A program made the translations under genes and the position numbers. DNA of 32,704 nt, taken from NCBI GenBank assembly GCA_964399335.1, contig CAYNQI010000006.1, positions 1 through 32,704 of the forward strand, given 5' to 3'. The notes beneath the pieces were generated by a model that saw only the letters and a program-made list of their open reading frames with translations, did not search any database and was not told where the DNA came from. This document shows positions 3,726 to 32,704 of this stretch, one piece after another. The number at the start of each line of letters is the position of its first letter. The first letter of the stretch is position 1. This DNA is from an uncultured Thermoplasmata archaeon. GTDB taxonomy: Archaea > Thermoplasmatota > Thermoplasmata > Halarchaeoplasmatales > Halarchaeoplasmataceae.

Positions 3726-3798
3726 AGCCCCGTATTGTAGCGGTCAATCATACGGGCCTTTGGAGCCTGTGACCCCGGTTCAAATCCGGGCGGGGCTA
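3726..3798 (+). tRNA. tRNA-Gln (anticodon UUG), archaeal type with A1:U72
   Basis: AGCCCCG acceptor pairs with CGGGGCU. T arm CCCGG-UUCAAAU-CCGGG. Anticodon stem CGGGC/GCCUG and loop C-U-UUG-G-A. The 5' end closely resembles known archaeal tRNA-Gln (AGCCCCGU...). Confidence 0.8.
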
Positions 3799-4655
3799 TT
3801 TTTTACTAGTTTTATCGAATTTGCAGTTTAGTTGCAAAATCAAAGATACGCTTTAGCAATAAGATTATTCGGTAGTAACTTTATAGACAATATAATTAAA
3901 CATTATCATTTACTTGTGATTATGTAAAATTAATGTAATACCAAGATTTACATAATAATTATAATAATAAAGGACTTTAAGTTAAATGCTATATTATTAA
4001 TGTAAAATACAACACTATTGTTATTGTTAGTAATATGAAATACCACCAATTTACTATTAATATACAATATTTAAGGGATTAACGTTTTTGTATATATTAA
4101 TAACTCATATACGTTATAATCGATATTGCAAAACAATAAAAAAACCGTGTTTTTTCGTAAAACTTCATAAAATACTATTTTTTAGCTCGGGGGGATACCC
4201 CCTAAGACTATATTTTAGTGTTTTATGGAGGGTCACCCCTATAATTAGTAAACTATTAATAGGGAATTAACAGCTTGTCGGAAAAGATACCTAATACGAC
4301 GTAGATTATATATAATAGAAAGGGTGATGTCGGAATTGTTATTATTGATATGGACAATTGAATATTAGTATGTTTTTAGCACTGTTTAATTAATAACAAA
4401 TATCATATATTAATGAACCGTTTAGACGATAGAAAACGTAGATCAAATTCTCGGAGGAAAGGTGCAAAGTGGTATTACAATATTTACACAAAACCAAAAT
4501 ATGCGTATTATAATTATAAATTATTGTTATAACGTTAATACCATATATAATAATTAATAACAACAAACTACTGGTATTAGCATACTTCCACAATACCATA
4601 AATATTGTTATAACTAATTATAATTAACACATTAACGTAAACTATTATAAATACT

Positions 4656-5267
4656 TCAAATCAACTTAACTCTTACATCATCCGCAATTTCAACAATCGC
4701 TAAGTTATCTTCATAAGCAGGACCCGGATTAACATAGACCGTTCCATCTTCCTCGATAACTCCTCTGCTTTCATGTACGTGCCCGCTCAATACAAGCATA
4801 GGGCCTGTTTCTGCTATTATCTCCAATAGACCACGTTCACCGATGTGTTTACCTCTCGAGGCTTCATCCAAATATCCATATGGGGGAGAATGGAATACAA
4901 ATATGTCAGCTGCAGCTATTTCTCTGAATTTTGATAATCTACTTTTAGAATACTTACTACCGGAAAGTCCAGAGAAGGTATGATCCATAAATTCGTAACT
5001 ATTAAGATCTAGATATACTCCTCCAACTATCTCAAAGGCCTTTTCTACTCCTTTAGGATCACAATTACCAGTAACTCCTAAAATATTATCGATATCTATC
5101 TTTTCTAAAATATCGACGGCATCTTCTTTATATCCAAAATCTGTGATATCCCCGCAGATAACAACAGCATCTGGCTCATGATTATATATTGATGCATTTA
5201 TTCGATTGATCGATCTAAAAGAACCATGGATATCCGAAACTACAAGAATTTTTAAACTCATGATCAC
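4656..5267 (-). CDS. Metallophosphoesterase (calcineurin-like, YfcE/MJ0936 family)
   Basis: Metallophosphoesterase motifs in canonical order: VSDIHG, GDITDFG, GNCD, HSPP, GHVHE. Confidence 0.8.
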   Translation of the reverse strand: MIMSLKILVVSDIHGSFRSINRINASIYNHEPDAVVICGDITDFGYKEDAVDILEKIDIDNILGVTGNCDPKGVEKAFEIVGGVYLDLNSYEFMDHTFSGLSGSKYSKSRLSKFREIAAADIFVFHSPPYGYLDEASRGKHIGERGLLEIIAETGPMLVLSGHVHESRGVIEEDGTVYVNPGPAYEDNLAIVEIADDVRVKLI

Positions 5268-15995: not shown

Positions 15996-17012
15996 TTAAA
16001 GCATCTTCCTTCCTTCACGTTTGAAATACTCCTCTAATTTCTCATTCGGATCAGAATAATCTTTACTCAAATCTCCTAAATGAGAGATAAATTTTTGGAA
16101 GTGTTTATATGGATATATATTCGATGTAAGTTCCTCATCTTCTACATTAACCCATTTCACACCGAGTTCTTGGTCTGCTGGTTTTACTCCGTTTTCACCA
16201 TCTACACCTGCCCAGCTGAAGAAGTACATTGCTTTATGTAGGTCAACACCTACAACTTTAGAACCTACTATGTTTTGATAAAGACCGGGAAGAAATGTTT
16301 TCAAAAGTTTCTCTCCATCTTCCCTTACTTCAACCTCATCATATCCTTTTTGTATATCTAATAGATCCCTCATACTATGGTTGGGGAACATATCGATTAT
16401 TTCTGGATCCATCATGTCCATTTTAGTGAAGAAAACTATCGGGTGTAATTCTTCAGATGTTTTATTAGCTTTATACTCCTCATAGCGTGATAAAATTTGA
16501 GACATCTCAGCATCATACCTTCGCATTGTAGTGCCTTTTTCACTCCTGATATCCTTTGTTAATTTAGAGCAATCAACTAGAATAACCATTATATTGCTGT
16601 TGAAAACTTCTTTGATCTTTTTTGTAACAGATTTATGATTACCAAATTCTTCGATCTCCTCACCTGACACATCGAATACAGTGAACATCAATTTATTCTC
16701 ATAATTAAATGCATTTTTAAGTCCACTTAAACCCTTTTCTGCTTTAATATGTTTAAAAACATCACTTTTTGTTGCCTCAAAATTCATCAAAAAACTCAAA
16801 GCTTGAAAATCTCCTCTAGCAGTTGCCCTTGGAAATTCACCAGCATGTAATCTATTTCGTATTTTATTGAGACAAACATCAGTCGTTTCAGGATCCATAT
16901 AATAAGCGAATTTTTTAGGATTCTTGATCGTATATTTTTCCATCGATTGATGTAAAAACCCAACTAACGTTGATTTTCCACAACCTCTGGTTCCTATTAT
17001 AGATACAGGCAT
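15996..17012 (-). CDS. P-loop GTPase-like protein (338 aa)
   Basis: N-terminal Walker A GTRGCGKST, a hhhhDxxG motif (FTVFDVSGEE), a Walker-B-like IMVILVDCS, and a TKMD G4-like motif (FFTKMD, compare NKxD/HKxD). Confidence 0.7.
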   Translation of the reverse strand: MPVSIIGTRGCGKSTLVGFLHQSMEKYTIKNPKKFAYYMDPETTDVCLNKIRNRLHAGEFPRATARGDFQALSFLMNFEATKSDVFKHIKAEKGLSGLKNAFNYENKLMFTVFDVSGEEIEEFGNHKSVTKKIKEVFNSNIMVILVDCSKLTKDIRSEKGTTMRRYDAEMSQILSRYEEYKANKTSEELHPIVFFTKMDMMDPEIIDMFPNHSMRDLLDIQKGYDEVEVREDGEKLLKTFLPGLYQNIVGSKVVGVDLHKAMYFFSWAGVDGENGVKPADQELGVKWVNVEDEELTSNIYPYKHFQKFISHLGDLSKDYSDPNEKLEEYFKREGRKML

Positions 17013-17081
17013 TTTCGTTCACCGAGCTGTAAACGTATTTTAATTATATATCATTTATGGTTATATCTCCATCAGAAAAGA

Positions 17082-17960
17082 TTATTTCCGAATCTCAGAA
17101 AGTATTTCTTTCTGAGTTTTTGATGTTTTTATTTTATTACCGATATAAGATATCATATCTATATATTGAAAATAGGGATAGATCAATACGTTTGGGTGAA
17201 GATCAAAAGGTTCAAATCCATCGGGTTTAGGATGTATTCTATGATGTTTATTGCTGACTATGGTATAGGTACTAAAAAAATAATTTGCCCCCGCCGTATT
17301 TTTTTTATTTATCAAATTCCAAGTTTTTGGAAGATTATTCTTCATTAAGATCATACCGGCCTTTCTTTTAACCTCTTCTTGGGAATCCTCTTTAGTAAAT
17401 ATTTTAAATATCAACTTTTTACCTTTATCTATTGGTAGATTTAAGACTATGAACATATAATTTTTAGAATTGGATCTTTGCTTAAAATATTCATTTAGTA
17501 ATATTGAAAGGTTTTTATCATAAAAACTATCAACCTTTGTAATATCTATAATAACCCCTAGTATCTCATCTTCTACGATCCTATCAAATCTTTCTGGTAA
17601 ACCGATTTTACCGAAATCATGCTGGCCAAAATTTATAATTCTAATCGAGGTTCTCTTCATGTCGTTATCTTTTGATTTATCTTTTTTTAATGCACTTCCT
17701 AAGTTTCTCATAAATTTATTTAACCCATTATACGGAAACCCAGCAATTAAACAGATTTCATCACCTTTGCTTAATCTTCTTTTAGTTTTAGAACCTAATC
17801 TATTCTCTTTTATGTGAAGTAATCTGAGGCTTTTAGAAGGTATATAAAAAGAGAAACCACTATTCTCATCTCTTACACTATATCTCTCCATAGATTTATG
17901 TAGGAGAACAGAAAACTCGTCGAACATTTTTTTCCTTAATGTGATTATAGACACGCCCAT
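17082..17960 (-). CDS. Degenerate paralogue of the upstream GTPase (pseudo-GTPase, P-loop lost)
   Basis: The N-terminus MGVSIITLRKKMFDEFSVLLHKSMERY aligns with MPVSIIGTRGCGKSTLVGFLHQSMEKY of the neighbour, but GKST is replaced. The later segments VIIDITKV and FIVLNLPID are also collinear. Confidence 0.6.
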   Translation of the reverse strand: MGVSIITLRKKMFDEFSVLLHKSMERYSVRDENSGFSFYIPSKSLRLLHIKENRLGSKTKRRLSKGDEICLIAGFPYNGLNKFMRNLGSALKKDKSKDNDMKRTSIRIINFGQHDFGKIGLPERFDRIVEDEILGVIIDITKVDSFYDKNLSILLNEYFKQRSNSKNYMFIVLNLPIDKGKKLIFKIFTKEDSQEEVKRKAGMILMKNNLPKTWNLINKKNTAGANYFFSTYTIVSNKHHRIHPKPDGFEPFDLHPNVLIYPYFQYIDMISYIGNKIKTSKTQKEILSEIRK

Positions 17961-17974
17961 AATATCATCTTTTT

Positions 17975-19480
17975 CTAAATAGTATAAATATCTCGTTCAT
18001 CTTTCTCTTCGACTTCAACCCTTTCCCCTATTTCTCCGAATAATTTATCTTTGTATTCTTTAAAGAACATATGAGGATGAGTACTCTTAGATATTCCTAC
18101 TTTCTCTTCTTCTAGTAAAATCCCGATTCCATAAAGACAGCCCAATATTGGAGAAGATGTGTGGATCTTTAGGACCTTAAAGTCTCCATTTGTATCAAGA
18201 TTGTTAAAATATTTTGCCTCCTCTATCTCCGAGAAGTTTTTGTTCCAATACTCCATATAATAAATAAAATTCTTTCTCCATTCAGGATCCGTCTGGAGGT
18301 AATCTACGATATCGTCTTCAAGACTTTGATCGTATTTAATTTCGTTCCGTATCTTTGTAAATAACTTTTTATTCCTTCTATTTTCTTTTATTATCTTAGC
18401 CCAGCCATCCTTTGAATCGAGTTCAAAAGTAGTATCTTTTTCCGCTTTATCTTCCATTACCTTTTCATCTGTATTTGAAGATTCCTCAGTTGATAAATTT
18501 TCAAAAGTTTGAACTTCTTGTTTCGGTCTTTTTTCCATAATGACCTGGTTTTCTTCTAATTCTTCTATCATATCTCTAAGCTCGTCTACAGAATTAGGAT
18601 CGTTTAGACGATGTTCAATCTCCACTGTATCTAACGTTCGACCTTGATATTCTAATAATGAATATTTTTTTCTGAGAAATATTAATTCTTTAATGTTTTC
18701 CTCGTATTCACTAAATAATTCTTCACCTTTATCAAGATCATCTTTAAGTGTATTGATTAATTTGTCTACCTGAAAACCTTCATCTCTCCAGTCTTTTGCT
18801 TTCATTAAAAGTTTCTTTTTCTTTTTCCTCCTTTTAATCTCCTTTTTAAGCTTTCTAACGATTCTTGAGGCCTTCTCTACCGAATCTGGATCGTTCAAGT
18901 ATTCTTCAATATTATCACTAAAAGCCATGTTGTATTTATCAAGAGGTAAAGATTGATATCTTTTTTTTACAATTTTTAATCTTTCAATTCTCTTATTATA
19001 TTCATCGATAAGGTCCTCACCTTTAGAGGGATTATTTTTTATCTTAGCTTTTAATCCAGAAACATCCCACCCTTCTTCTTCTAACTCTTTTAATTTGCTA
19101 AATAATTTCTTTAATCTCTTTTTTTTATCGATCTTCATTTTTAGTTTGTTGACTATCCTCGAGGCTTTTTTTACCGAATCAGGGTCATTCAGATATTCTT
19201 CGATATTTTCACTAAAAGCCAAATCGAATTCATTCAATTTTAAAGAATTATATCTCTTTTTAATAATCTTTAATCTTTTAATCCTTTTCTTATATTCCCT
19301 TATAAAGTCCTCACCTTTAGAAGGGTCATCCTCTATCTTATTTTTTAAACCAGAAACATCCCAACCATCGTTTTCCCAGTCTTTAATTATATCCAATAGT
19401 TTATTTATAGATTCTTCTCTTTTTCTTTCCTTTTCTCTATCCTCGGATATCTTATCTATGATTGGTTTTTTTTCTGACAT
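17975..19480 (-). CDS. Basic/acidic coiled-coil protein with three tandem ~85-aa repeats (EGWDVSGLK.KI...PSKGE..I.EY..RI.RLKI.KKRY.SL.L....AFS.NIEEYLNDPDSV.KASRIV.KLK)
   Basis: The repeats are visible at both protein and DNA level (~18.57-19.39 kb). No known domain recognised. Confidence 0.65.
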   Translation of the reverse strand: MSEKKPIIDKISEDREKERKREESINKLLDIIKDWENDGWDVSGLKNKIEDDPSKGEDFIREYKKRIKRLKIIKKRYNSLKLNEFDLAFSENIEEYLNDPDSVKKASRIVNKLKMKIDKKKRLKKLFSKLKELEEEGWDVSGLKAKIKNNPSKGEDLIDEYNKRIERLKIVKKRYQSLPLDKYNMAFSDNIEEYLNDPDSVEKASRIVRKLKKEIKRRKKKKKLLMKAKDWRDEGFQVDKLINTLKDDLDKGEELFSEYEENIKELIFLRKKYSLLEYQGRTLDTVEIEHRLNDPNSVDELRDMIEELEENQVIMEKRPKQEVQTFENLSTEESSNTDEKVMEDKAEKDTTFELDSKDGWAKIIKENRRNKKLFTKIRNEIKYDQSLEDDIVDYLQTDPEWRKNFIYYMEYWNKNFSEIEEAKYFNNLDTNGDFKVLKIHTSSPILGCLYGIGILLEEEKVGISKSTHPHMFFKEYKDKLFGEIGERVEVEEKDERDIYTI

Positions 19481-26606: not shown

Positions 26607-27389
26607 CTAGAAGGGTTTCTCGTAGTCCTCGTAGATGACATCCTGCCGTAAGTTATTCAATTCCTCTTCAATTTCCGCCTTTTTCTGAGTTATACTTTCA
26701 GAAGCATCTTTGTATGTTTCTAAATCAATTTTTTCATCTGCAAGTTGTTCAGCAAGTGAAGTCTTTTTATCATCTAAGCTTTTTATTTCTTCTAAAGATT
26801 CGTTGTACACTTCATATTTGTTTTTTAGCTCGTTTAATAGATTTTCAGCCTTATCAATATCCATATTTTTAATTGCATCAATTATAGGTCTTTTATCTAT
26901 CATACTTTCCCTTTCTTCTAATGAAGATACTTCACCTTCTATCTTCTCTATTTTATCTGTGATCTTATTTCTTTCTTTGATTAGAGAGTTTGCCTCTTCA
27001 AAATTTCTGTTATCGATCATCCTCTCAATATCACTCGTTTTCATATACCTAGTAGACTCTTTTAATTCGTCTAATTTACTATCTAATTTGACTAATTTTT
27101 CAGCAATCGATAGACCTGCAAAAGTAGATGATTTTGGTTTAGACAATTTTTGAGGCTTTTTAGGGATAGGTCTTTTTTTATCAGTTGCCTCAAAACCCTC
27201 TTTTCTTTGTTTAACTAGTTCATTAGCACGCCCATATAATCCCTCCTTTAATGCCTCTTCGATATCACTTACGTCTTTTCCTTCTCTTTTCAATTGAGAT
27301 AACTGTTCTTCTAAAGATTTAATCCATGGGATAAATCCTCCCCGGATATTGATAAGCTGCTCAGCAGTAGTGTAATCTCCACTCATCAT
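26607..27389 (-). CDS. Paralogue P1 of the 'YEDYxKPF-tail' family: soluble coiled-coil N-terminus plus the conserved C-terminal module (MID.R motif duplicated)
   Basis: C-terminal ~105 aa are collinear with P2-P5: ...MIDKRPI...LAEQLADEKIDLETY...LRQDVIYEDYEKPF. Confidence 0.7.
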   Translation of the reverse strand: MMSGDYTTAEQLINIRGGFIPWIKSLEEQLSQLKREGKDVSDIEEALKEGLYGRANELVKQRKEGFEATDKKRPIPKKPQKLSKPKSSTFAGLSIAEKLVKLDSKLDELKESTRYMKTSDIERMIDNRNFEEANSLIKERNKITDKIEKIEGEVSSLEERESMIDKRPIIDAIKNMDIDKAENLLNELKNKYEVYNESLEEIKSLDDKKTSLAEQLADEKIDLETYKDASESITQKKAEIEEELNNLRQDVIYEDYEKPF

Positions 27390-27599
27390 ATATCGTTCTA
27401 TATCTTTTGTTTTTATATAAGGAACTTCACGTTTAATTTTGTTGAGTTTTTTTTCAATATTTATGCTAGATTCATCTGCTATATTATCACCAGTTAATTT
27501 CGCACTCTTAATCGAATAATTAGTTTATAAACATTCCTATTTTGTTAAATGGAGTTTTAATTTGATTCTTTTAGGTCCGTCTAAATCCAAACCTTAATA

Positions 27600-27932
27600 T
27601 TGTTAGACAAACATCACAGTTTGATGAACTTGATATCATTGATAGTAATTTTGTATCTTCTTATGATAAATTTTTCTTCATTTTTGTTGTTCGGGATAGA
27701 TAAGTATAAAGCAAAAAATAATAAAAGAAGAATATCCGAGAAAAATCTTTTTTTCCTGTCTTTTATAGGTGGCATTTTTGGATCTCTATTAGGTATGAAA
27801 ACATACAGACATAAAACTAAGAAATTGAGCTTCAATACTGCTATCTTTTTCTTGTTAATATGGAACTTTTTCATATACCTAATCATAATAGACCAGTTAT
27901 TTTATGAGATAATCAAGTTCATACCTATTTAA
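27600..27932 (+). CDS. DUF1294-family small membrane protein
   Basis: FGIDKYKAKNNKRRISEKNL...GGIFGSLLGMKTYRHKTKK.SF matches the DUF1294 DK.A...RI.E..L..GG..G...HKT.K pattern. In bacteria this domain is often fused to a cold-shock domain. Confidence 0.6.
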   Translation: MLDKHHSLMNLISLIVILYLLMINFSSFLLFGIDKYKAKNNKRRISEKNLFFLSFIGGIFGSLLGMKTYRHKTKKLSFNTAIFFLLIWNFFIYLIIIDQLFYEIIKFIPI

Positions 27933-28043
27933 GATGAGAGAGAACCTTGAGATTTTTTTGGTAAAATATTACATCATCTTTAAGTTCTAAAGAAAAATTC
28001 ATTTCACTTAAGCTTCTGAGGAGGTAAAATATTACATTCAACT

Positions 28044-29123
28044 TCAAAACGGTTTCTGGTAATCTTCATAGATGACCTCATGTCTTAGTTTGTTCAACCT
28101 CTCTTCTAGATCAGCCTTCTTGTGCTCTATACTTTGGACGGCGTCATAGTATGTGTTTTTATCTATTTCATAATCAGCTAACTTTTGAGCTAAAGAGCTT
28201 TTCTTATCATCTAGCGTTTCCAATTCCACTATCGTTTCTTTGTATTCCCGATACTTTTCTTCCAAACCTGATAAAAGTTCTCCAGCCTTCTTTACATCAC
28301 CTTCATCTAAAGCTGAATCGATACCTCTTGTATCTATCATACGTTCATCTTCCTTGAGTTGAGAGATCGTCTTTTTTATATCACTCAAGGAATTATATGC
28401 TTTCCTATCTTTACTAATTTCTTCAATTGTTTTACTTTTTTTCTGAGCAGTTTTTACTTTTTTACTTCGTCTGACCCATACAGTCTTATCTATAGATTTT
28501 TCGAATCCTACCTGATTTTGGTAAATTATTTTCAGATCGAGAGATGAGTTTTCTCTTGTTGTTTTTCCTTTCATATACACCTTATTAACCCTATTTTCTC
28601 CAGCTTTCAATATATCTATTGCTGAATCTTGTCGGATCTCTGTCCCTCCTTCAGATCGAATACGGATATTGAATGCATCGTGGTTTCCTAAATTGGAGAT
28701 GATTATGTCTTCCCTTGTCCACTTCTCCGGACGGAGTTCTATATTTTCAACTTCAACTTCTAAATCTGGGAAGGCCCTCCATATCCTTTCCCTATCTTTT
28801 AAAGTTCTAAATATCTGCTCCGTATTTTTGTCTCTTGCAGAATGCCCAAGACCTTTTCCTCTAAATATGATTATACTCTTTTTTGTTTTTATCTCGATAT
28901 ATTTGGGGTTCATCCATATATCAAATAAGTTCATTTCGATATGTTCTATCTCTGAAGGATGAATTCTTATATTTTGTTTCTTTCCATGATATCTTATCTC
29001 GTGTCCGATTATCAATGTTCCCTTATCTGGTACCGGGGATCCCCATCCTTCTAGGCCCTCTTTTTCTTTTTGGGTATAAAAACGAACACTTTCAAACCGA
29101 GATTCATTTAATTTACTCTTCAT
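28044..29123 (-). CDS. Paralogue P2: soluble N-terminus (possible bacterial-PH-like fold) plus the conserved C-terminal module
   Basis: ...ERMIDTRGID...LAQKLADYEIDKNTY...LRHEVIYEDYQKPF. Its last 34 nt, stop codon included, are identical to P3. Confidence 0.7.
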   Translation of the reverse strand: MKSKLNESRFESVRFYTQKEKEGLEGWGSPVPDKGTLIIGHEIRYHGKKQNIRIHPSEIEHIEMNLFDIWMNPKYIEIKTKKSIIIFRGKGLGHSARDKNTEQIFRTLKDRERIWRAFPDLEVEVENIELRPEKWTREDIIISNLGNHDAFNIRIRSEGGTEIRQDSAIDILKAGENRVNKVYMKGKTTRENSSLDLKIIYQNQVGFEKSIDKTVWVRRSKKVKTAQKKSKTIEEISKDRKAYNSLSDIKKTISQLKEDERMIDTRGIDSALDEGDVKKAGELLSGLEEKYREYKETIVELETLDDKKSSLAQKLADYEIDKNTYYDAVQSIEHKKADLEERLNKLRHEVIYEDYQKPF

Positions 29124-29398
29124 TTTTTTTGGTCCATTTTCTTGTCTTTGGAATTAGAGATATATATTTATAATTTTATCTTCAACCTAAAACCCTTCTA
29201 CCAATCTTAGTAAATGACTTTCTGTCGTGATCTTTCGAGTCTGTTTTTTTAGCTAATTTCTCCACGCTTTTTTTTGCGGAACCCCTCGTTACGATTTCTA
29301 ATCCTCTCGAATGTCTATCAATTCCGATCCTATCGGTTCTGAAAACAATTACATAGTCTGATGTTGGCGTAATTTTCTAATATCCCTGTCAAAGTTTG

Positions 29399-30532
29399 TC
29401 AAAACGGTTTCTGGTAATCTTCATAGATGACCTCTTTGCGAAGCCTGTTTAATTCTTCCTCAAGATCTGACTTTCTCCATCTTACACTCTCACTAGCATC
29501 ACTATAAGTTTTTCTATCGATCTCACCGTCAGCTAATTTCTCGGCCAATCTACTCTTTCTATCATCTAATTTACCTAACTGTTTTAATGTATCCTTATAC
29601 TTTTCATAGTTTTCTTTGAGATCATTAAAAAGTTCCTCCGCTTCCTCTACTTTATTTTCTTCTAGGAGAGTTTCTATTTCTCGGGTATCGATCATTTTTT
29701 CTTCTTCTTTTAAAAAATCGATCTCTTTATTTAATCTCTCTTTTTTCTCGCTTATACTTTCTTTAAAGCTTTCTTTTGATAAAGGTGGTGGCATCGGCTG
29801 GTTATCTTTACTTGAAGTTCTTTGATCCTCTTCTGATCTTGTTGGAAATGGTTGGTCATAAGAGTTAGGTTTTGATGGTTGTTGTTGCCATCGTGCTCGC
29901 TGTCTATCATATCCATATTGCATTCTCTCTGGCATTGATTTAGTTGTATATATTGTTCCAAAAGCTACTAAATTTAATATCCCAGCGGCTATGGACATGA
30001 ACCAAGAATATGTTCCACCCCATGACAAATGAAAATTAGAACCATAAATATCCTCATTACTCGATCCGAAGAAGCTTTCATGGGGACCAGATTCGGAACT
30101 GTAAAATTCCTCTTCATTCCAAGCATCAGGTAGTGAAACCATCATATAGACAGGCGCTATCAAAGCAATAATGAAACCGATTAGTACAAGTACAGCACCG
30201 ACTTTTGGAGACAATTTCCCTGTAGCTACAATAAATGCCCCTACACTTCCAAGAGCAGTAAAGAAAATGGAGATCATTACGAATATTTTAGACATATTTA
30301 ATACGTCTGCGGGTTCAAAATCCTCTGGATATTCATCTCTCTCAGTATCTGTACCGTCATAATCCTCCGATGAAATTTCCATCTCATCAAAATATAAATC
30401 AAGGCTAGTAGCTCTATCATCATCTTCTGGTTCAATACTGTAATTATACCAAGGTAGTAAGAAAGTAAATGAAAGGAGTACTAATGCAACAATTGTTAAT
30501 CCTAATCCAGCAACTACTTTCTTTTTTACCAT
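29399..30532 (-). CDS. Paralogue P3: N-terminal signal/TM region, D/E-rich segment, three further TM helices, P-rich linker, then the conserved C-terminal module
   Basis: ...EKMIDTREIE...LAEKLADGEIDRKTY...LRKEVIYEDYQKPF. Confidence 0.7.
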   Translation of the reverse strand: MVKKKVVAGLGLTIVALVLLSFTFLLPWYNYSIEPEDDDRATSLDLYFDEMEISSEDYDGTDTERDEYPEDFEPADVLNMSKIFVMISIFFTALGSVGAFIVATGKLSPKVGAVLVLIGFIIALIAPVYMMVSLPDAWNEEEFYSSESGPHESFFGSSNEDIYGSNFHLSWGGTYSWFMSIAAGILNLVAFGTIYTTKSMPERMQYGYDRQRARWQQQPSKPNSYDQPFPTRSEEDQRTSSKDNQPMPPPLSKESFKESISEKKERLNKEIDFLKEEEKMIDTREIETLLEENKVEEAEELFNDLKENYEKYKDTLKQLGKLDDRKSRLAEKLADGEIDRKTYSDASESVRWRKSDLEEELNRLRKEVIYEDYQKPF

Positions 30533-30639
30533 AATATCGATTCAAGTTCATTAGAAAATAATAAAAGAAATATATATCACTTATGAACAGATGAAAGATT
30601 TGAGTCTTTTATATACCTTAAATATTATGGTTAACTTTT

Positions 30640-30950
30640 GTGAGAGTTTGAGAGAGCTGTAAGTCCTCTTCTTTTAGTGAGTGGATATACGGACTCTCTC
30701 AAAAAGGAAAACCTCATCTGCTACTTTCGTAAAATTCTGGTGTCGGGATGTCGGAAAGCTCCCAGTTCCCCAATCTGATGGAGAGCGTTAGGACAGGAGA
30801 GGATGAACAACTCTCCTGAATGAATAAAGCCTCTTCTGACATCAGGAGTACCGTGACCGTACTCGAAGTCGCTATTGACGACCTAACCTCTGGATACTAC
30901 CCGTAGAGAGACAAGTTAGCGAGGTGGATGAGGAGGTCACTAGTCTCTGT
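30640..30950. ncRNA. Candidate structured RNA of unknown class: a ~310-nt GC-rich (~48% against ~30% background) island packed with perfect hairpins. Strand undetermined
   Basis: Hairpins include CAGGAGAG-9nt-CUCUCCUG (30793-30817), GAGUAC-7nt-GUACUC, and AGAGAC-31nt-GUCUCU. CUGAUG (30772-30777) pairs with CAUCAG (30838-30843) to enclose a sub-domain, and a GAGAG/CUCUC helix sits at the 5' end. There is no ORF. Confidence 0.35.
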
Positions 30951-32018
30951 CTAGAATGGTTTTGCATAATCTTCATGAATCACCTTGTTGCGAAGATCAC
31001 TTAATTTTTCTTCTATTTTTGCTTTTCTATATTCAATACTTTCACTGGCATCTCGATACGTTTCTCTGTCTATTTCACCATCAGCTAATTTTTCAGCTAG
31101 TGTAGTTTTTCTTTTATCTAGAGATCTTATCATATCCAATGTTTCTTGATATTCTGAGAAATCTTTTTTCAATGAAGATAGTTCCTCATTGATTTTTACA
31201 AAATCCTCTTCAGATATTGCTTTCTCTATCTCTCTAATATCTATCATCGGTTCTTCTTCTTTAAGATCTTCAATCTCTATTTTTGCCTCTGCGATTGTTG
31301 ATATTTCAAGTTCAGAGTCCTCATCCCTATTTTCATCTTCCTCTTCTTTTTCATTCTCCTTTTGTTCCTCTTCCTGGACTTGATTATCTTCTTCTAGATG
31401 GTAGTCTTCGGGGATATAAGGGAGAGATGGAGATTCTTGTTTGTTAAAAGGATAGTTTTCCTCTTCGTCCTCTTGATCTGATGTGGGAACAGATTCAAAA
31501 TCATCTGTAGATGTTTCTATTTCCTCAATAGTTCTTCCACCTATTAGAACTATAACAATACCAACAATAACAAGCCAATAACCCATATTCGCCTGGAATA
31601 CAAAAAAAGGTAATTCATATGCATCAACTAGTATAATGAACCAATAACCTTCAAAAATCAAAAGTACAGCTAGAGTTATATACCCATATTTCAAAACTTT
31701 ACTTTTACTCTCTGCAGAAGAAAATAACAAGATCAATACCGCTGCAATAGGGATGATGAAGACTATACTTAAAGATCCACCTACAATGTGATAACCATCA
31801 ATAGCTAGATTTAATCCGGATAAAGAAGAAAACCAATTCAAAAAGAAAGATAGGATCATAATTATACTTCCAACAATCGATAACGCTGCACCTACAGATA
31901 GACTTTCCCTTGGCTTGATAAATCCTAGGTTTTTCTTTTCTCTCTCCTTTTTTAAAGATGTTATTTCAATAACTGCTTTTACAATAATTATAACTGCGAT
32001 TATAAGCGTGAAGAACAA
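30951..32018 (-). CDS. Paralogue P4: five-TM N-terminal domain, long acidic linker, then the conserved C-terminal module
   Basis: ...EPMIDIREIE...LAEKLADGEIDRETY...LRNKVIHEDYAKPF. Confidence 0.7.
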   Translation of the reverse strand: MFFTLIIAVIIIVKAVIEITSLKKEREKKNLGFIKPRESLSVGAALSIVGSIIMILSFFLNWFSSLSGLNLAIDGYHIVGGSLSIVFIIPIAAVLILLFSSAESKSKVLKYGYITLAVLLIFEGYWFIILVDAYELPFFVFQANMGYWLVIVGIVIVLIGGRTIEEIETSTDDFESVPTSDQEDEEENYPFNKQESPSLPYIPEDYHLEEDNQVQEEEQKENEKEEEDENRDEDSELEISTIAEAKIEIEDLKEEEPMIDIREIEKAISEEDFVKINEELSSLKKDFSEYQETLDMIRSLDKRKTTLAEKLADGEIDRETYRDASESIEYRKAKIEEKLSDLRNKVIHEDYAKPF

Positions 32019-32158
32019 ACATACATTTTTAGGTATAATATTATTTCCTCCGCATGCACTATACCTAATATATATTAACTATATATAATTTATTTTTCCA
32101 CTCACCATTTCTATGTTTTCTTCGGGCCTTTTATTAAGATATCGTTAAAATACATTGT

Positions 32159-32704
32159 TTAAAAAGGTTTTTCATAATCCTCGTAGACCACCTTATTTCG
32201 AAGTTTGCTTAGTTTTTCTTCTAACTCTGCTTTCCTATGTGTAATACTTTGATTTGCATCATTATAAGTATCCCGGTCTATTTTTCCATCAGCCAATTGT
32301 TCCGCTAATGAATATCTTCTTTGATCTAACTTTTTCAATGTATCTAAAACTTCTGTATACTCTTCATAGTTCTCTTGGAGTTCAAACAGATGATCTTCAG
32401 CTCTTTCTATTTTCCCCTCCTCTAGAGCTTGATCTATTTTCCTTGTATCTATCATCTTTTCATCCTTCTTTAAAGAATCGATGCCTTTCTCTATCTTTTT
32501 GATCTTTTTTAGATGATCATTATTCTCTTGTGATAAATTTCTAGAACCCTCTAATAATTTATCATTAGATCCCATGTTTCTATTTGTAGTATTTTGAAAT
32601 CTTTCTAGTTGTTTGTTTCCATCGAATTTAGTCTCTGAATCTTCTACACTCTTTTGAAACCTTTCTGAATAAGGTGCTGGTGGGGGAGGTGGTTTCTGTT
32701 GATA
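32159..32704 (-). CDS. Paralogue P5, partial: the ORF stays open to the window edge, the N-terminus lies beyond 32704, and there is a Pro-rich linker
   Basis: ...EKMIDTRKID...LAEQLADGKIDRDTY...LRNKVVYEDYEKPF. The reading frame continues without a stop past the annotated Met at 32575 (...YQQKPPPPAPYSERF...). Confidence 0.65.
   Translation of the reverse strand, partial: YQQKPPPPPAPYSERFQKSVEDSETKFDGNKQLERFQNTTNRNMGSNDKLLEGSRNLSQENNDHLKKIKKIEKGIDSLKKDEKMIDTRKIDQALEEGKIERAEDHLFELQENYEEYTEVLDTLKKLDQRRYSLAEQLADGKIDRDTYNDANQSITHRKAELEEKLSKLRNKVVYEDYEKPF

Follow-up and report, generated by a model that had tools for sequence, protein, structure and literature searches.

A GC-rich island between two paralogous archaeal genes is one copy of an uncatalogued, protein-free family with a conserved multi-helix fold

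What is a GC-rich, hairpin-dense island of some 310 nt doing between two paralogous genes of an otherwise AT-rich archaeal contig? The island (positions 30640-30950) lies in a contig of an uncultured Thermoplasmata archaeon (CAYNQI010000006.1), of which a stretch of 32,704 nt, referred to here as the window, was analyzed. It is flanked by the minus-strand genes P4 (30951-32018) and P3 (29399-30532), both members of a five-gene paralogue array. The original prediction, made from the letters alone, had seen in it a candidate structured non-coding RNA (ncRNA). The GC jump that it reported is real: the island has 47.3% GC compared to 34.5% for the whole window, and ranks first among both the 200-nt and the 300-nt stretches of the 32.7 kb (best 200-nt GC fraction 0.51, mean 0.345, sd 0.05). 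We find that the island is one copy of a previously uncatalogued, protein-free and hairpin-rich family of 310-420-nt elements in halophilic Thermoplasmatota ('Ca. Halarchaeoplasmatales'-like). It is not compositional noise, but marks a covariation-supported family that is absent from RNA databases, in an archaeal order known only from metagenome-assembled genomes (MAGs).

Relatives of the island were found by nucleotide and protein searches. A scan of JGI metagenomes with a pattern taken from 30845-30874 gave two contigs, L018 and L019. The first is the same locus, 99.7% identical, from soda-lake sediment. The second is an unrelated contig of 43.6% GC that aligns to window positions 30744-30896 over 153 ungapped nt at 85% identity, including 43 nt (30828-30870) that are identical in the two copies; ten open reading frames (ORFs) tested on this contig have no significant Pfam or PHROG family, with two faint PHROG matches (E ~0.002-0.006). 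Because gene callers tend to annotate false ORFs on such islands, one translated frame of the core was searched against 1.84 billion protein representatives, and an alignment of the matches was then searched against a set of 5.8 billion proteins. These searches returned six 'proteins' with mutually shifted frames, whose contigs provided further copies (L020-L026). By BLASTN, the block 30744-30896 (+ strand) has 82-85% ungapped identity to copies on unrelated contigs.

In total, homologues occur in seven further unrelated contexts, all of them in MAGs of halophilic Thermoplasmatota or in soda-lake metagenomes. L020 belongs to a MAG of 'Ca. Saliniplasma', a member of the halophilic order 'Ca. 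Halarchaeoplasmatales' known from MAGs only (PMC11332174), and this contig terminates inside the copy. The L021 copy lies between a thiolase operon and crcB, those of L022 and L023 among ORFans and a DpdA gene, and that of L024, the most divergent, next to POR genes and the gene for ribosomal protein S17e. L025 comes from the same ENA sample as the window contig, and its copy sits in AT-rich flanks between KaiC-like and ferredoxin-like genes. L026 holds two copies arranged head-to-head (171-574 on the - strand and 674-864 on the + strand) with a 96-nt AT-rich spacer between them; the second is AT-richer, is cut by the contig end and scores 40.8 bits with R1, the covariance model of the family. 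Window-type and L025-type copies, together with a third copy that is AT-richer, occur in the same ENA samples. A search with the covariance model revealed no second copy in the window and none in relatives. Copies from different genomes diverge by 15-30%, no two of the eight contexts show any synteny, and tblastx among the loci finds the element as the sole common sequence, its six frames matching about equally.

The key evidence for a structured RNA is comparative. In an alignment of the core of seven sequences (A9), 95.7% of the cells are paired, and nine pairs have changed on both sides compared to 3.2±1.4 in shuffled alignments (reached in 0 of 500) and 1-2 in slid controls. Over the full length, the structure comprises 110 pairs in 17 helices, with 95.6% of cells paired and 22 double-changed pairs, versus 8.9±2.0 in shuffles (again 0 of 500) and 1-4 in slid controls. 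Same-species contigs, which are either identical or one single-nucleotide polymorphism (SNP) apart, are uninformative in this respect. The compensatory substitutions that the original prediction would have expected across homologous loci are therefore present, and they back its structured ncRNA candidate as a conserved, non-coding element with an eight-helix core and 17 helices at full length. The window sequence folded by itself is far less eloquent, with modest z-scores against shuffles of -2.4 on the + strand and -1.5 on the - strand, while L019 alone reaches -5.6. The structure is convincing through the comparative data and not through the window sequence alone.

These data also identify the folded strand. 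Read in the + orientation, 337 of 352 cells are canonical, 51 of them G·U pairs; in the reverse complement, only 291 of 352 are canonical and five are G·U, the - strand reading adding 46 A·C mismatches. The RNAalifold energy is likewise lower on the + strand (-52.4 vs. -37.0). The folded strand is the + strand of the window, antisense to genes P3 and P4, and this excludes both the minus-strand leader or 3'-element ideas and a minus-strand hint of signal recognition particle (SRP) RNA, to which we return below. The family thus exists in at least eight unrelated contexts, is non-coding and has a conserved multi-helix fold on the + strand with compensatory changes, a fold that the window copy obeys.

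The four stems named in the original prediction are all present in the sequence, but as structure they fare unequally. The stem CAGGAGAG/CTCTCCTG (30794-30801/30813-30820) is the conserved helix P6, and GAGTAC/GTACTC (30846-51/30859-64) is the conserved helix P7, all on the + strand. AGAGAC/GTCTCT (30908-13/30944-49) is found in the window copy only and extends across the element 3' end. The long-range pairing CTGATG/CATCAG (30776-81/30840-45), thought to close a sub-domain, is absent from the consensus structure, where CTGATG falls in the P5 hairpin. Three hairpin loops are conserved: AUCUGR (6 nt), GAUGAAYAA (9 nt) and CGUGACC (7 nt). The last of these, the P7 loop (30852-30858), contains a GUGACC (30853-58) that is complementary to the 3'-terminal GGUCAC (30935-40). 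Neither motif varies among the window copy and four full-length copies (helix 11), and RNAalifold picks the pairing unprompted, making this a candidate pseudoknot; with nothing varying, covariation is nil and the pairing is unproven. L024 has the loop UGUCUCC, and its 3' end cannot be aligned reliably enough to be used for covariation of the pseudoknot. An archaeal C/D-box sRNA at 30796-30840 was also considered and rejected: the boxes are 9-10 nt apart rather than 12, the region is the P6 hairpin, and the match to sR3 is 9.9 bits.

Described in the orientation of the window + strand, with its ends set where conservation stops in the alignments, a canonical copy is ~410 nt long. It starts directly after TTAA with CTCTTTACCC... 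or CTCTTTACCCAAGAAG, and the TTAA precedes the conserved 5' end in nine of ten contexts, the exception being L021 (TTGG). The sequence 5' of the TTAA is unrelated in every context, and conservation breaks off abruptly on both sides of the element. From 5' to 3', the copy comprises a 5' hairpin module whose internal loop (GAA/GAA) is symmetric, the motif GUGAUGA, an AU-rich linker (UUUUAUAUAC), the eight-helix core, a 3' domain with three more hairpins and a 3' hairpin module. The 3' terminus, GAGGAGGTCAC, lies exactly 10 nt after the 3' hairpin and is present in all copies that reach the 3' end. The 5' module (GUCACCUUCC..GGUGGGUGAUGA) and the 3' module (GCACCUUCC..GGAAGGUGAGGA) of canonical copies are direct repeats, ~70% identical to each other, and both are backed by compensatory changes (helices 3 and 17). 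The foot of the hairpin is ~15 nt from the boundary at the 5' end, compared to exactly 10 nt at the 3' end. Terminal inverted repeats are absent, the flanks are unrelated, and they show no target duplication. The TTAA may belong to the element as its first 4 nt, or may be a target or transposon-adjacent motif. Concerted evolution of the two end hairpins was considered as well, and is weak (similarity of 0.73 within copies vs. 0.67 between copies). In L024, the 5' arm of the 5' hairpin module contains three repeats of an 11-nt unit, CCUUCCUGAAU (~4330-4400 of the reverse complement).

The window copy (30635-30940, + strand, 306 nt) is a divergent member of the family that starts with CTTTTGTGAG and ends with GAGGAGGTCAC. 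The covariance model R1 matches positions 30732-30947 of the + strand with 188.9 bits (E 3e-56), compared to 201-234 bits for canonical copies. Its core (30742-30929) has all eight helices of the A9 alignment on the + strand: P1 (30742-46/30875-79), P2 (30747-56/30834-43), the hairpin arm P3-P5, the P6 and P7 stems described above, and P8 (30881-90/30921-29). Since 49 of the 51 core pairs are kept and 11 of the 13 pairs altered relative to the consensus are still canonical (2 being fully compensated), the window copy is still under structural constraint and is not decaying.

The copy departs from the canonical anatomy on either side of the core. Directly 5' of the copy lies the TTAA (30631-30634, + strand), and its first 110 nt form a different long hairpin, unrelated in sequence but of the same position and overall length as the 5' module of the family; this subterminal hairpin (UUUGAGAGAGCUGUAAGUCC...GGACUCUCUCAAA, 30648-30707, + strand) is found in both the minimum-free-energy and the centroid folds. 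The TTAA-to-core distance is accordingly similar, 113 nt vs. ~118 nt in canonical copies. At the other end, the window copy lacks the ~130-nt 3' domain (junction GCGAGGUGGAUGAGGAGGUCAC), in what looks like a deletion between two GGUAGGUG repeats of the canonical copies. The 3'-terminal oligonucleotide GAGGAGGTCAC (30930-30940, + strand) is retained; similarity to the other copies ends right after it, 10 nt from the stop codon of P4.

Could the island be a decayed gene, or a fragment of foreign coding DNA? As originally predicted, no ORF of 60 aa or more exists in any frame. The longest Met-initiated ORF is longer than the ~23 aa then estimated: a 42-aa ATG ORF lies at 30714-30842 on the - strand. 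We judge it to be spurious, as its product is not on record and the homologous copies are open in other frames, with frameshifts. A stop-free stretch of 62 codons also lies in frame after P4. Read-through of the P4 stop into the island by TAG/pyrrolysine decoding is ruled out, because TAG is an ordinary stop here (it terminates 10 of 33 genes) and all five paralogues end in KPF-stop. A case for coding origin could be made from the one minus-strand frame shared by the window and L019, FEYGHGTPDVRRGF..ELFIL.CP.ALHQIGEL.AFRHP, with seven synonymous vs. six replacement codon changes, and from the ORFs that gene callers annotated on several copies. That frame, however, runs opposite to the structured strand. 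In the window copy it has no start codon and is interrupted by a TAG in place of the CAG of L019, and the annotated products P0010, P0012 and P0014 switch frames relative to each other. The mismatches between the window and L019 fall 10/7/6 over codon positions and hence give no coding signature; the third-position bias is not significant after allowing for six frames and for transition bias. Together with the equal matching of all six frames in tblastx and the covarying helices, this makes a decayed or foreign coding sequence highly improbable. The part of that alternative which stands is that the island looks inserted. The public 'hypothetical proteins' of 75-196 aa on these copies (P0008-P0010, P0012, P0014 and P0015) are spurious translations of the strand opposite the structured one, and annotators should stop calling them, whichever reading of the family holds.

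A second set of candidates are the large universal RNAs. In favour of the archaeon's SRP (7S) RNA or RNase P RNA, the size of ~310 nt would fit, the window contains a gene for SRP19, and, to our eye, GGAAAGC at 30753-59 and GUGAUGAAU in canonical copies faintly recall the CR-I and CR-IV motifs of RNase P RNA. No Rfam model supports either identity. Rfam 15 at gathering thresholds finds only three tRNAs in the window, and a scan of 30450-31100 on both strands at E<=10 gives only noise, with neither SRP RNA nor RNase P RNA. On the L021 region 3750-4750, there is no match to RF01857, RF00373 or RF02357 at E<=10, and other copies (L018-L022, L024) have no match at gathering score, so that none of the seven copies shows a relevant family. 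The conserved apical loops are 6, 7 and 9 nt long, as opposed to the GNAR tetraloops of SRP RNA helices 6 and 8, and by reading we see no P4-type complement to GGAAAGC, the order of the RNase P motifs being wrong as well. The minus-strand hairpin once likened to SRP helix 8 (UAC-GAAA-GUA followed by GCAG, 30719-30735) lies outside the conserved core and, by the G·U asymmetry, on the wrong strand. What the family does share with archaeal SRP RNA (RF01857) and RNase P RNA (RF00373, RF02357) is a similar size, its appearance as a GC-rich island in an AT-rich genome and a closed multi-helix fold; it differs in having no helix-8 motif, GNAR tetraloop or P4 pairing, and in being multi-copy and non-syntenic. 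Several copies per population and deletable domains of 130 nt are equally hard to reconcile with either RNA, and a divergent form of one of them is the least probable of all the explanations considered here.

A third possibility is that the island acts in cis on the minus strand, serving P4 as a structured 3' UTR or terminator, or P3 as a 5' leader or thermosensor. The island does have a minus-strand gene on either side and begins 10 nt beyond the stop codon of P4, and a UUUUCCUUUUU run on the - strand could terminate P4. Both versions require the - strand to fold, where the structure would suffer the 46 additional A·C mismatches, and the homologues lie beside unrelated genes in both orientations. 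Furthermore, an AT-rich, promoter-like region of P3 itself separates the island from the P3 ATG. The other members of the paralogue array have no such element, and a synteny comparison shows that the relatives of the paralogue family (L004-L009) are also without the island. We consider regulation in cis of P3 or P4 very unlikely.

What kind of entity, then, is a protein-free, structured element with sharp ends and no fixed neighbourhood? We rank first, at a probability of roughly 0.45, a non-autonomous element of the IS200/IS605 type, resembling the palindrome-associated transposable elements (PATEs) of haloarchaea and carrying an ωRNA-like core. PATEs have no terminal inverted repeats, near-terminal palindromes that resemble each other, a 5' targeting sequence of 4-6 bp and no target duplication, and are further characterized by a longer 5' than 3' spacing, a conserved terminal oligonucleotide, repeat-mediated core deletions and abundance in haloarchaea (PMC3119063). 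They 'often encode ωRNAs' on which TnpB acts in trans (PMC10055086). The present family has the same general design: no terminal inverted repeats, similar same-strand subterminal hairpins at both ends (diverged in sequence in the window copy), the constant 4-nt TTAA at the left end (9/10 contexts, with the proviso that it could belong to the element), no target duplication and a conserved right-end oligonucleotide. The asymmetric spacing of the end hairpins (~15 nt left vs. 10 nt right) is of the same kind as that of IS608, where the spacings are 19 and 10 nt.

The mechanism that we propose is as follows. The similar subterminal hairpins would be left-end and right-end hairpins, which a Y1 transposase provided in trans would recognize on the top strand, and the TTAA would be the target or transposon-adjacent motif. 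The covarying core together with the right-end hairpin would form an ωRNA-like guide-RNA scaffold, transcribed on the + strand; the putative transcript would continue past the 3' end of the element into the flank and would load a TnpB-type nuclease whose gene lies at another place in the genome. The GC jump would then be the footprint of a structured element inserted in an otherwise ~108-nt AT-rich spacer between paralogous genes. Some features of the flanks would fit such a transcript. The archaeal TATA-box-like sequence TTTTATATA (30607-30615, + strand), centred ~26 nt upstream of the element 5' end, is a candidate promoter, by the spacing general to archaeal promoters, for a putative + strand transcript with its start near 30636-30642. 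The motif is external to the element, and the flank of L014, a variant of the locus in another MAG, does not have it. A TTTT run (30960-30963, + strand), which lies 20 nt past the element 3' end and falls, in antisense, within the 3' end of P4, may be an archaeal terminator; runs of four to five Ts occur 17-20 nt beyond the 3' end in three of five copies (window, L019 and L022).

The parallel with known elements is close in some respects and not in others. Like the PATEs HqIRS46/56 of Haloquadratum (PMC3119063), the copies are too short for a protein and heterogeneous, include an internal deletion variant between short repeats, and occur in archaea of hypersaline habitats; the resembling near-terminal palindromes, the short constant 5' oligonucleotide (here TTAA), the longer 5' spacing and the conserved 3' oligonucleotide complete the likeness. 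Unlike PATEs, they have an interior that is a large RNA-like fold of 17 covarying helices instead of a short passenger, have been seen in few copies, and belong to Thermoplasmatota and not Halobacteria. In common with the ωRNA/reRNA of TnpB (PMC10055086), the family has a (predicted) structured RNA of the top strand, the right-end hairpin as the last stem at the element end, the last 6 nt paired with an internal loop in a possible pseudoknot, and a T-run ~17-20 nt into the flank that would leave a tail of guide length. It differs from it in having no adjacent tnpB, no overlap with a tnpB 3' end and no sequence or covariance-model match, and its guide role is hypothetical. The scaffold would be 200-330 nt long, at or beyond the upper size of ωRNAs. 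HEARO/IscB ωRNA, OLE, GOLLD and ROOL offer a looser comparison: they too are multi-helix RNAs of several hundred nt, covariation-supported, lineage-restricted, sometimes multi-copy, and of unknown function or linked to mobile elements. The family has no Rfam match to them, an archaeal host and no associated ORF.

Several observations weigh against a PATE-like element. No tnpA or tnpB gene adjoins any of the eight copies, and the neighbours tested have no transposase domain. No remnant of the TnpB C-terminus is visible in the + strand translations, and no full-length parent insertion sequence with the same ends was found. Neither was a pair of filled and empty sites that would demonstrate mobility. 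The copies are 15-30% different and found one per contig, with no swarm of near-identical copies. The IS605-related and HEARO models of Rfam give no match, nor do phage and plasmid collections searched by BLAST, nor IMG/VR in four pattern scans that included a degenerate pattern fitting all copies. The similarity of the two end hairpins is only slightly higher within copies than between them. Lastly, the 5' flank alone differs in the two pairs of strains described next, where simple transposition predicts otherwise. If the PATE-like reading with an ωRNA-like core is nevertheless true, IS200/IS605 guide-RNA biology would reach Thermoplasmatota, and the family would provide a compact scaffold for finding the partner TnpB.

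The two strain pairs are independent, and in each of them sequences that are otherwise identical diverge exactly at the TTAA end. In the window, the order is P4-element-P3, whereas in L014 it is P4-element-Usp gene, the two differing over L014 1715-1978 and from window position 30630 downwards. Similarly, L025 from 1045 onwards differs from L026 from 579 onwards. These flank switches may mark hotspots of rearrangement at the strain level, or else chimeric assemblies joined through a repeat. Several contigs break off within or close to a copy, namely L020, L019, L024, L026 and four Logan contigs (at 30876-30890). Within the island, the ends of four independent Logan contigs fall at 30890 or 30876, and an ENA contig begins at 30912; neither a strain SNP at 30928 nor the 43 nt identical in L019 accounts for these breaks between 30876 and 30912.

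The close rival to a PATE-like element is a non-mobile, host-encoded gene family for a large structured RNA acting in trans as the scaffold of a ribonucleoprotein (RNP), specific to halophilic Thermoplasmatota. According to this explanation, the window copy would be a divergent paralogue transcribed from the TATA box at 30607-15, and the flank switches would result from other mobile DNA integrating next to a conserved gene, as happens at tRNA and tmRNA genes. Much speaks for it. The covariation extends along the whole length and is not confined to the ends, the divergence of 15-30% between genomes is typical of a conserved RNA gene, and the copies occupy chromosomal contexts beside housekeeping genes (thiolase operon, POR, KaiC-like, ribosomal S17e) with no transposase found nearby. 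A change in one flank alone in each of the two strain pairs is also consistent with a stationary gene, as are the ORFan blocks that abut the 5' end in L019 and L022, the TATA-like motifs upstream and T-runs downstream, and the ability of the 5' leader and 3' tail to pair, closing the molecule. The complete lack of synteny among eight contexts is difficult to account for in this way, however, as are the two to three or more copies in the low-GC population, including the head-to-head pair. Similar direct-repeat end hairpins with asymmetric spacing, sharp ends and a constant TTAA are unusual for an RNA gene and typical of IS200/IS605 ends (PMC3119063), and each unrelated flank would have to supply the promoter anew. 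We hold a stand-alone host RNA to be a serious but lesser possibility. If it is true, the family would be a new large class of archaeal ncRNA, whose 5' end marks exact strain-level rearrangement breakpoints at two independent loci.

In a broader formulation, to which we would give tentative credence short of the PATE-like reading, halophilic Thermoplasmatota would have a large structured RNA (about 320-420 nt) that is related to no Rfam family and forms a new class. It would be either a host RNP RNA whose gene is a rearrangement hotspot at its 5' end, or an RNA-only selfish element whose eight-helix core serves as a guide-RNA scaffold for a nuclease or recombinase not yet linked to it.

HgcC (RF00062) and other high-GC ncRNAs resemble the family in being found as GC islands in an AT-rich archaeon and in a hairpin followed by a GAGGAGGUCA-like motif, but HgcC gives no match on the island or on any copy. 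The sole weak match is in a separate GC-rich, hairpin-dense stretch (L021 4290-4620) that abuts the 5' end of the L021 copy, where the flank reads TTGG in place of TTAA; it lies on the opposite strand, with 25 bits (E 0.0015), below the gathering score of 50. This stretch may be another ncRNA or another mobile element.

The surroundings of the island in the window offer some additional observations. The host is archaeal, the window encoding SRP19, S8e, a tRNA-splicing endonuclease and GGGP synthase, and the sole genome relative of the paralogue family is a Thermoplasmatota MAG. The array itself (26607-32575) consists of five tandem minus-strand genes with a common C-terminal domain of 115 aa (~50% pairwise identity) that ends in ...EDYxKPF, while their N-terminal parts are mutually unrelated and partly membrane-spanning. 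This domain has only six relatives among 5.8 billion proteins and no Pfam family, and the P4 protein has no homologue besides itself. P4 also shows a strain-specific indel of 12 nt (four codons) at position 31496, the protein being 355 aa long in the window vs. 359 aa in L018 (P0001).

Three further features lie at a distance from the array. Just 3' of the tRNA-Gln gene (3726-3798) is an AT-rich stretch of ~850 nt (3799-4655) that has no ORF of 70 aa or more and no Rfam match, and may be the remnant of something integrated at this tRNA. An ORF of 501 aa (17975-19480) contains a tandem duplication of 294 nt with 72% identity (18777-19364); it is part of a gene cluster containing DO-GTPase2 (15996-19480) that is conserved in L007 and L008. 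Close to the start of the window, positions 22-87 consist of two 33-nt tandem repeats that are 91% identical.

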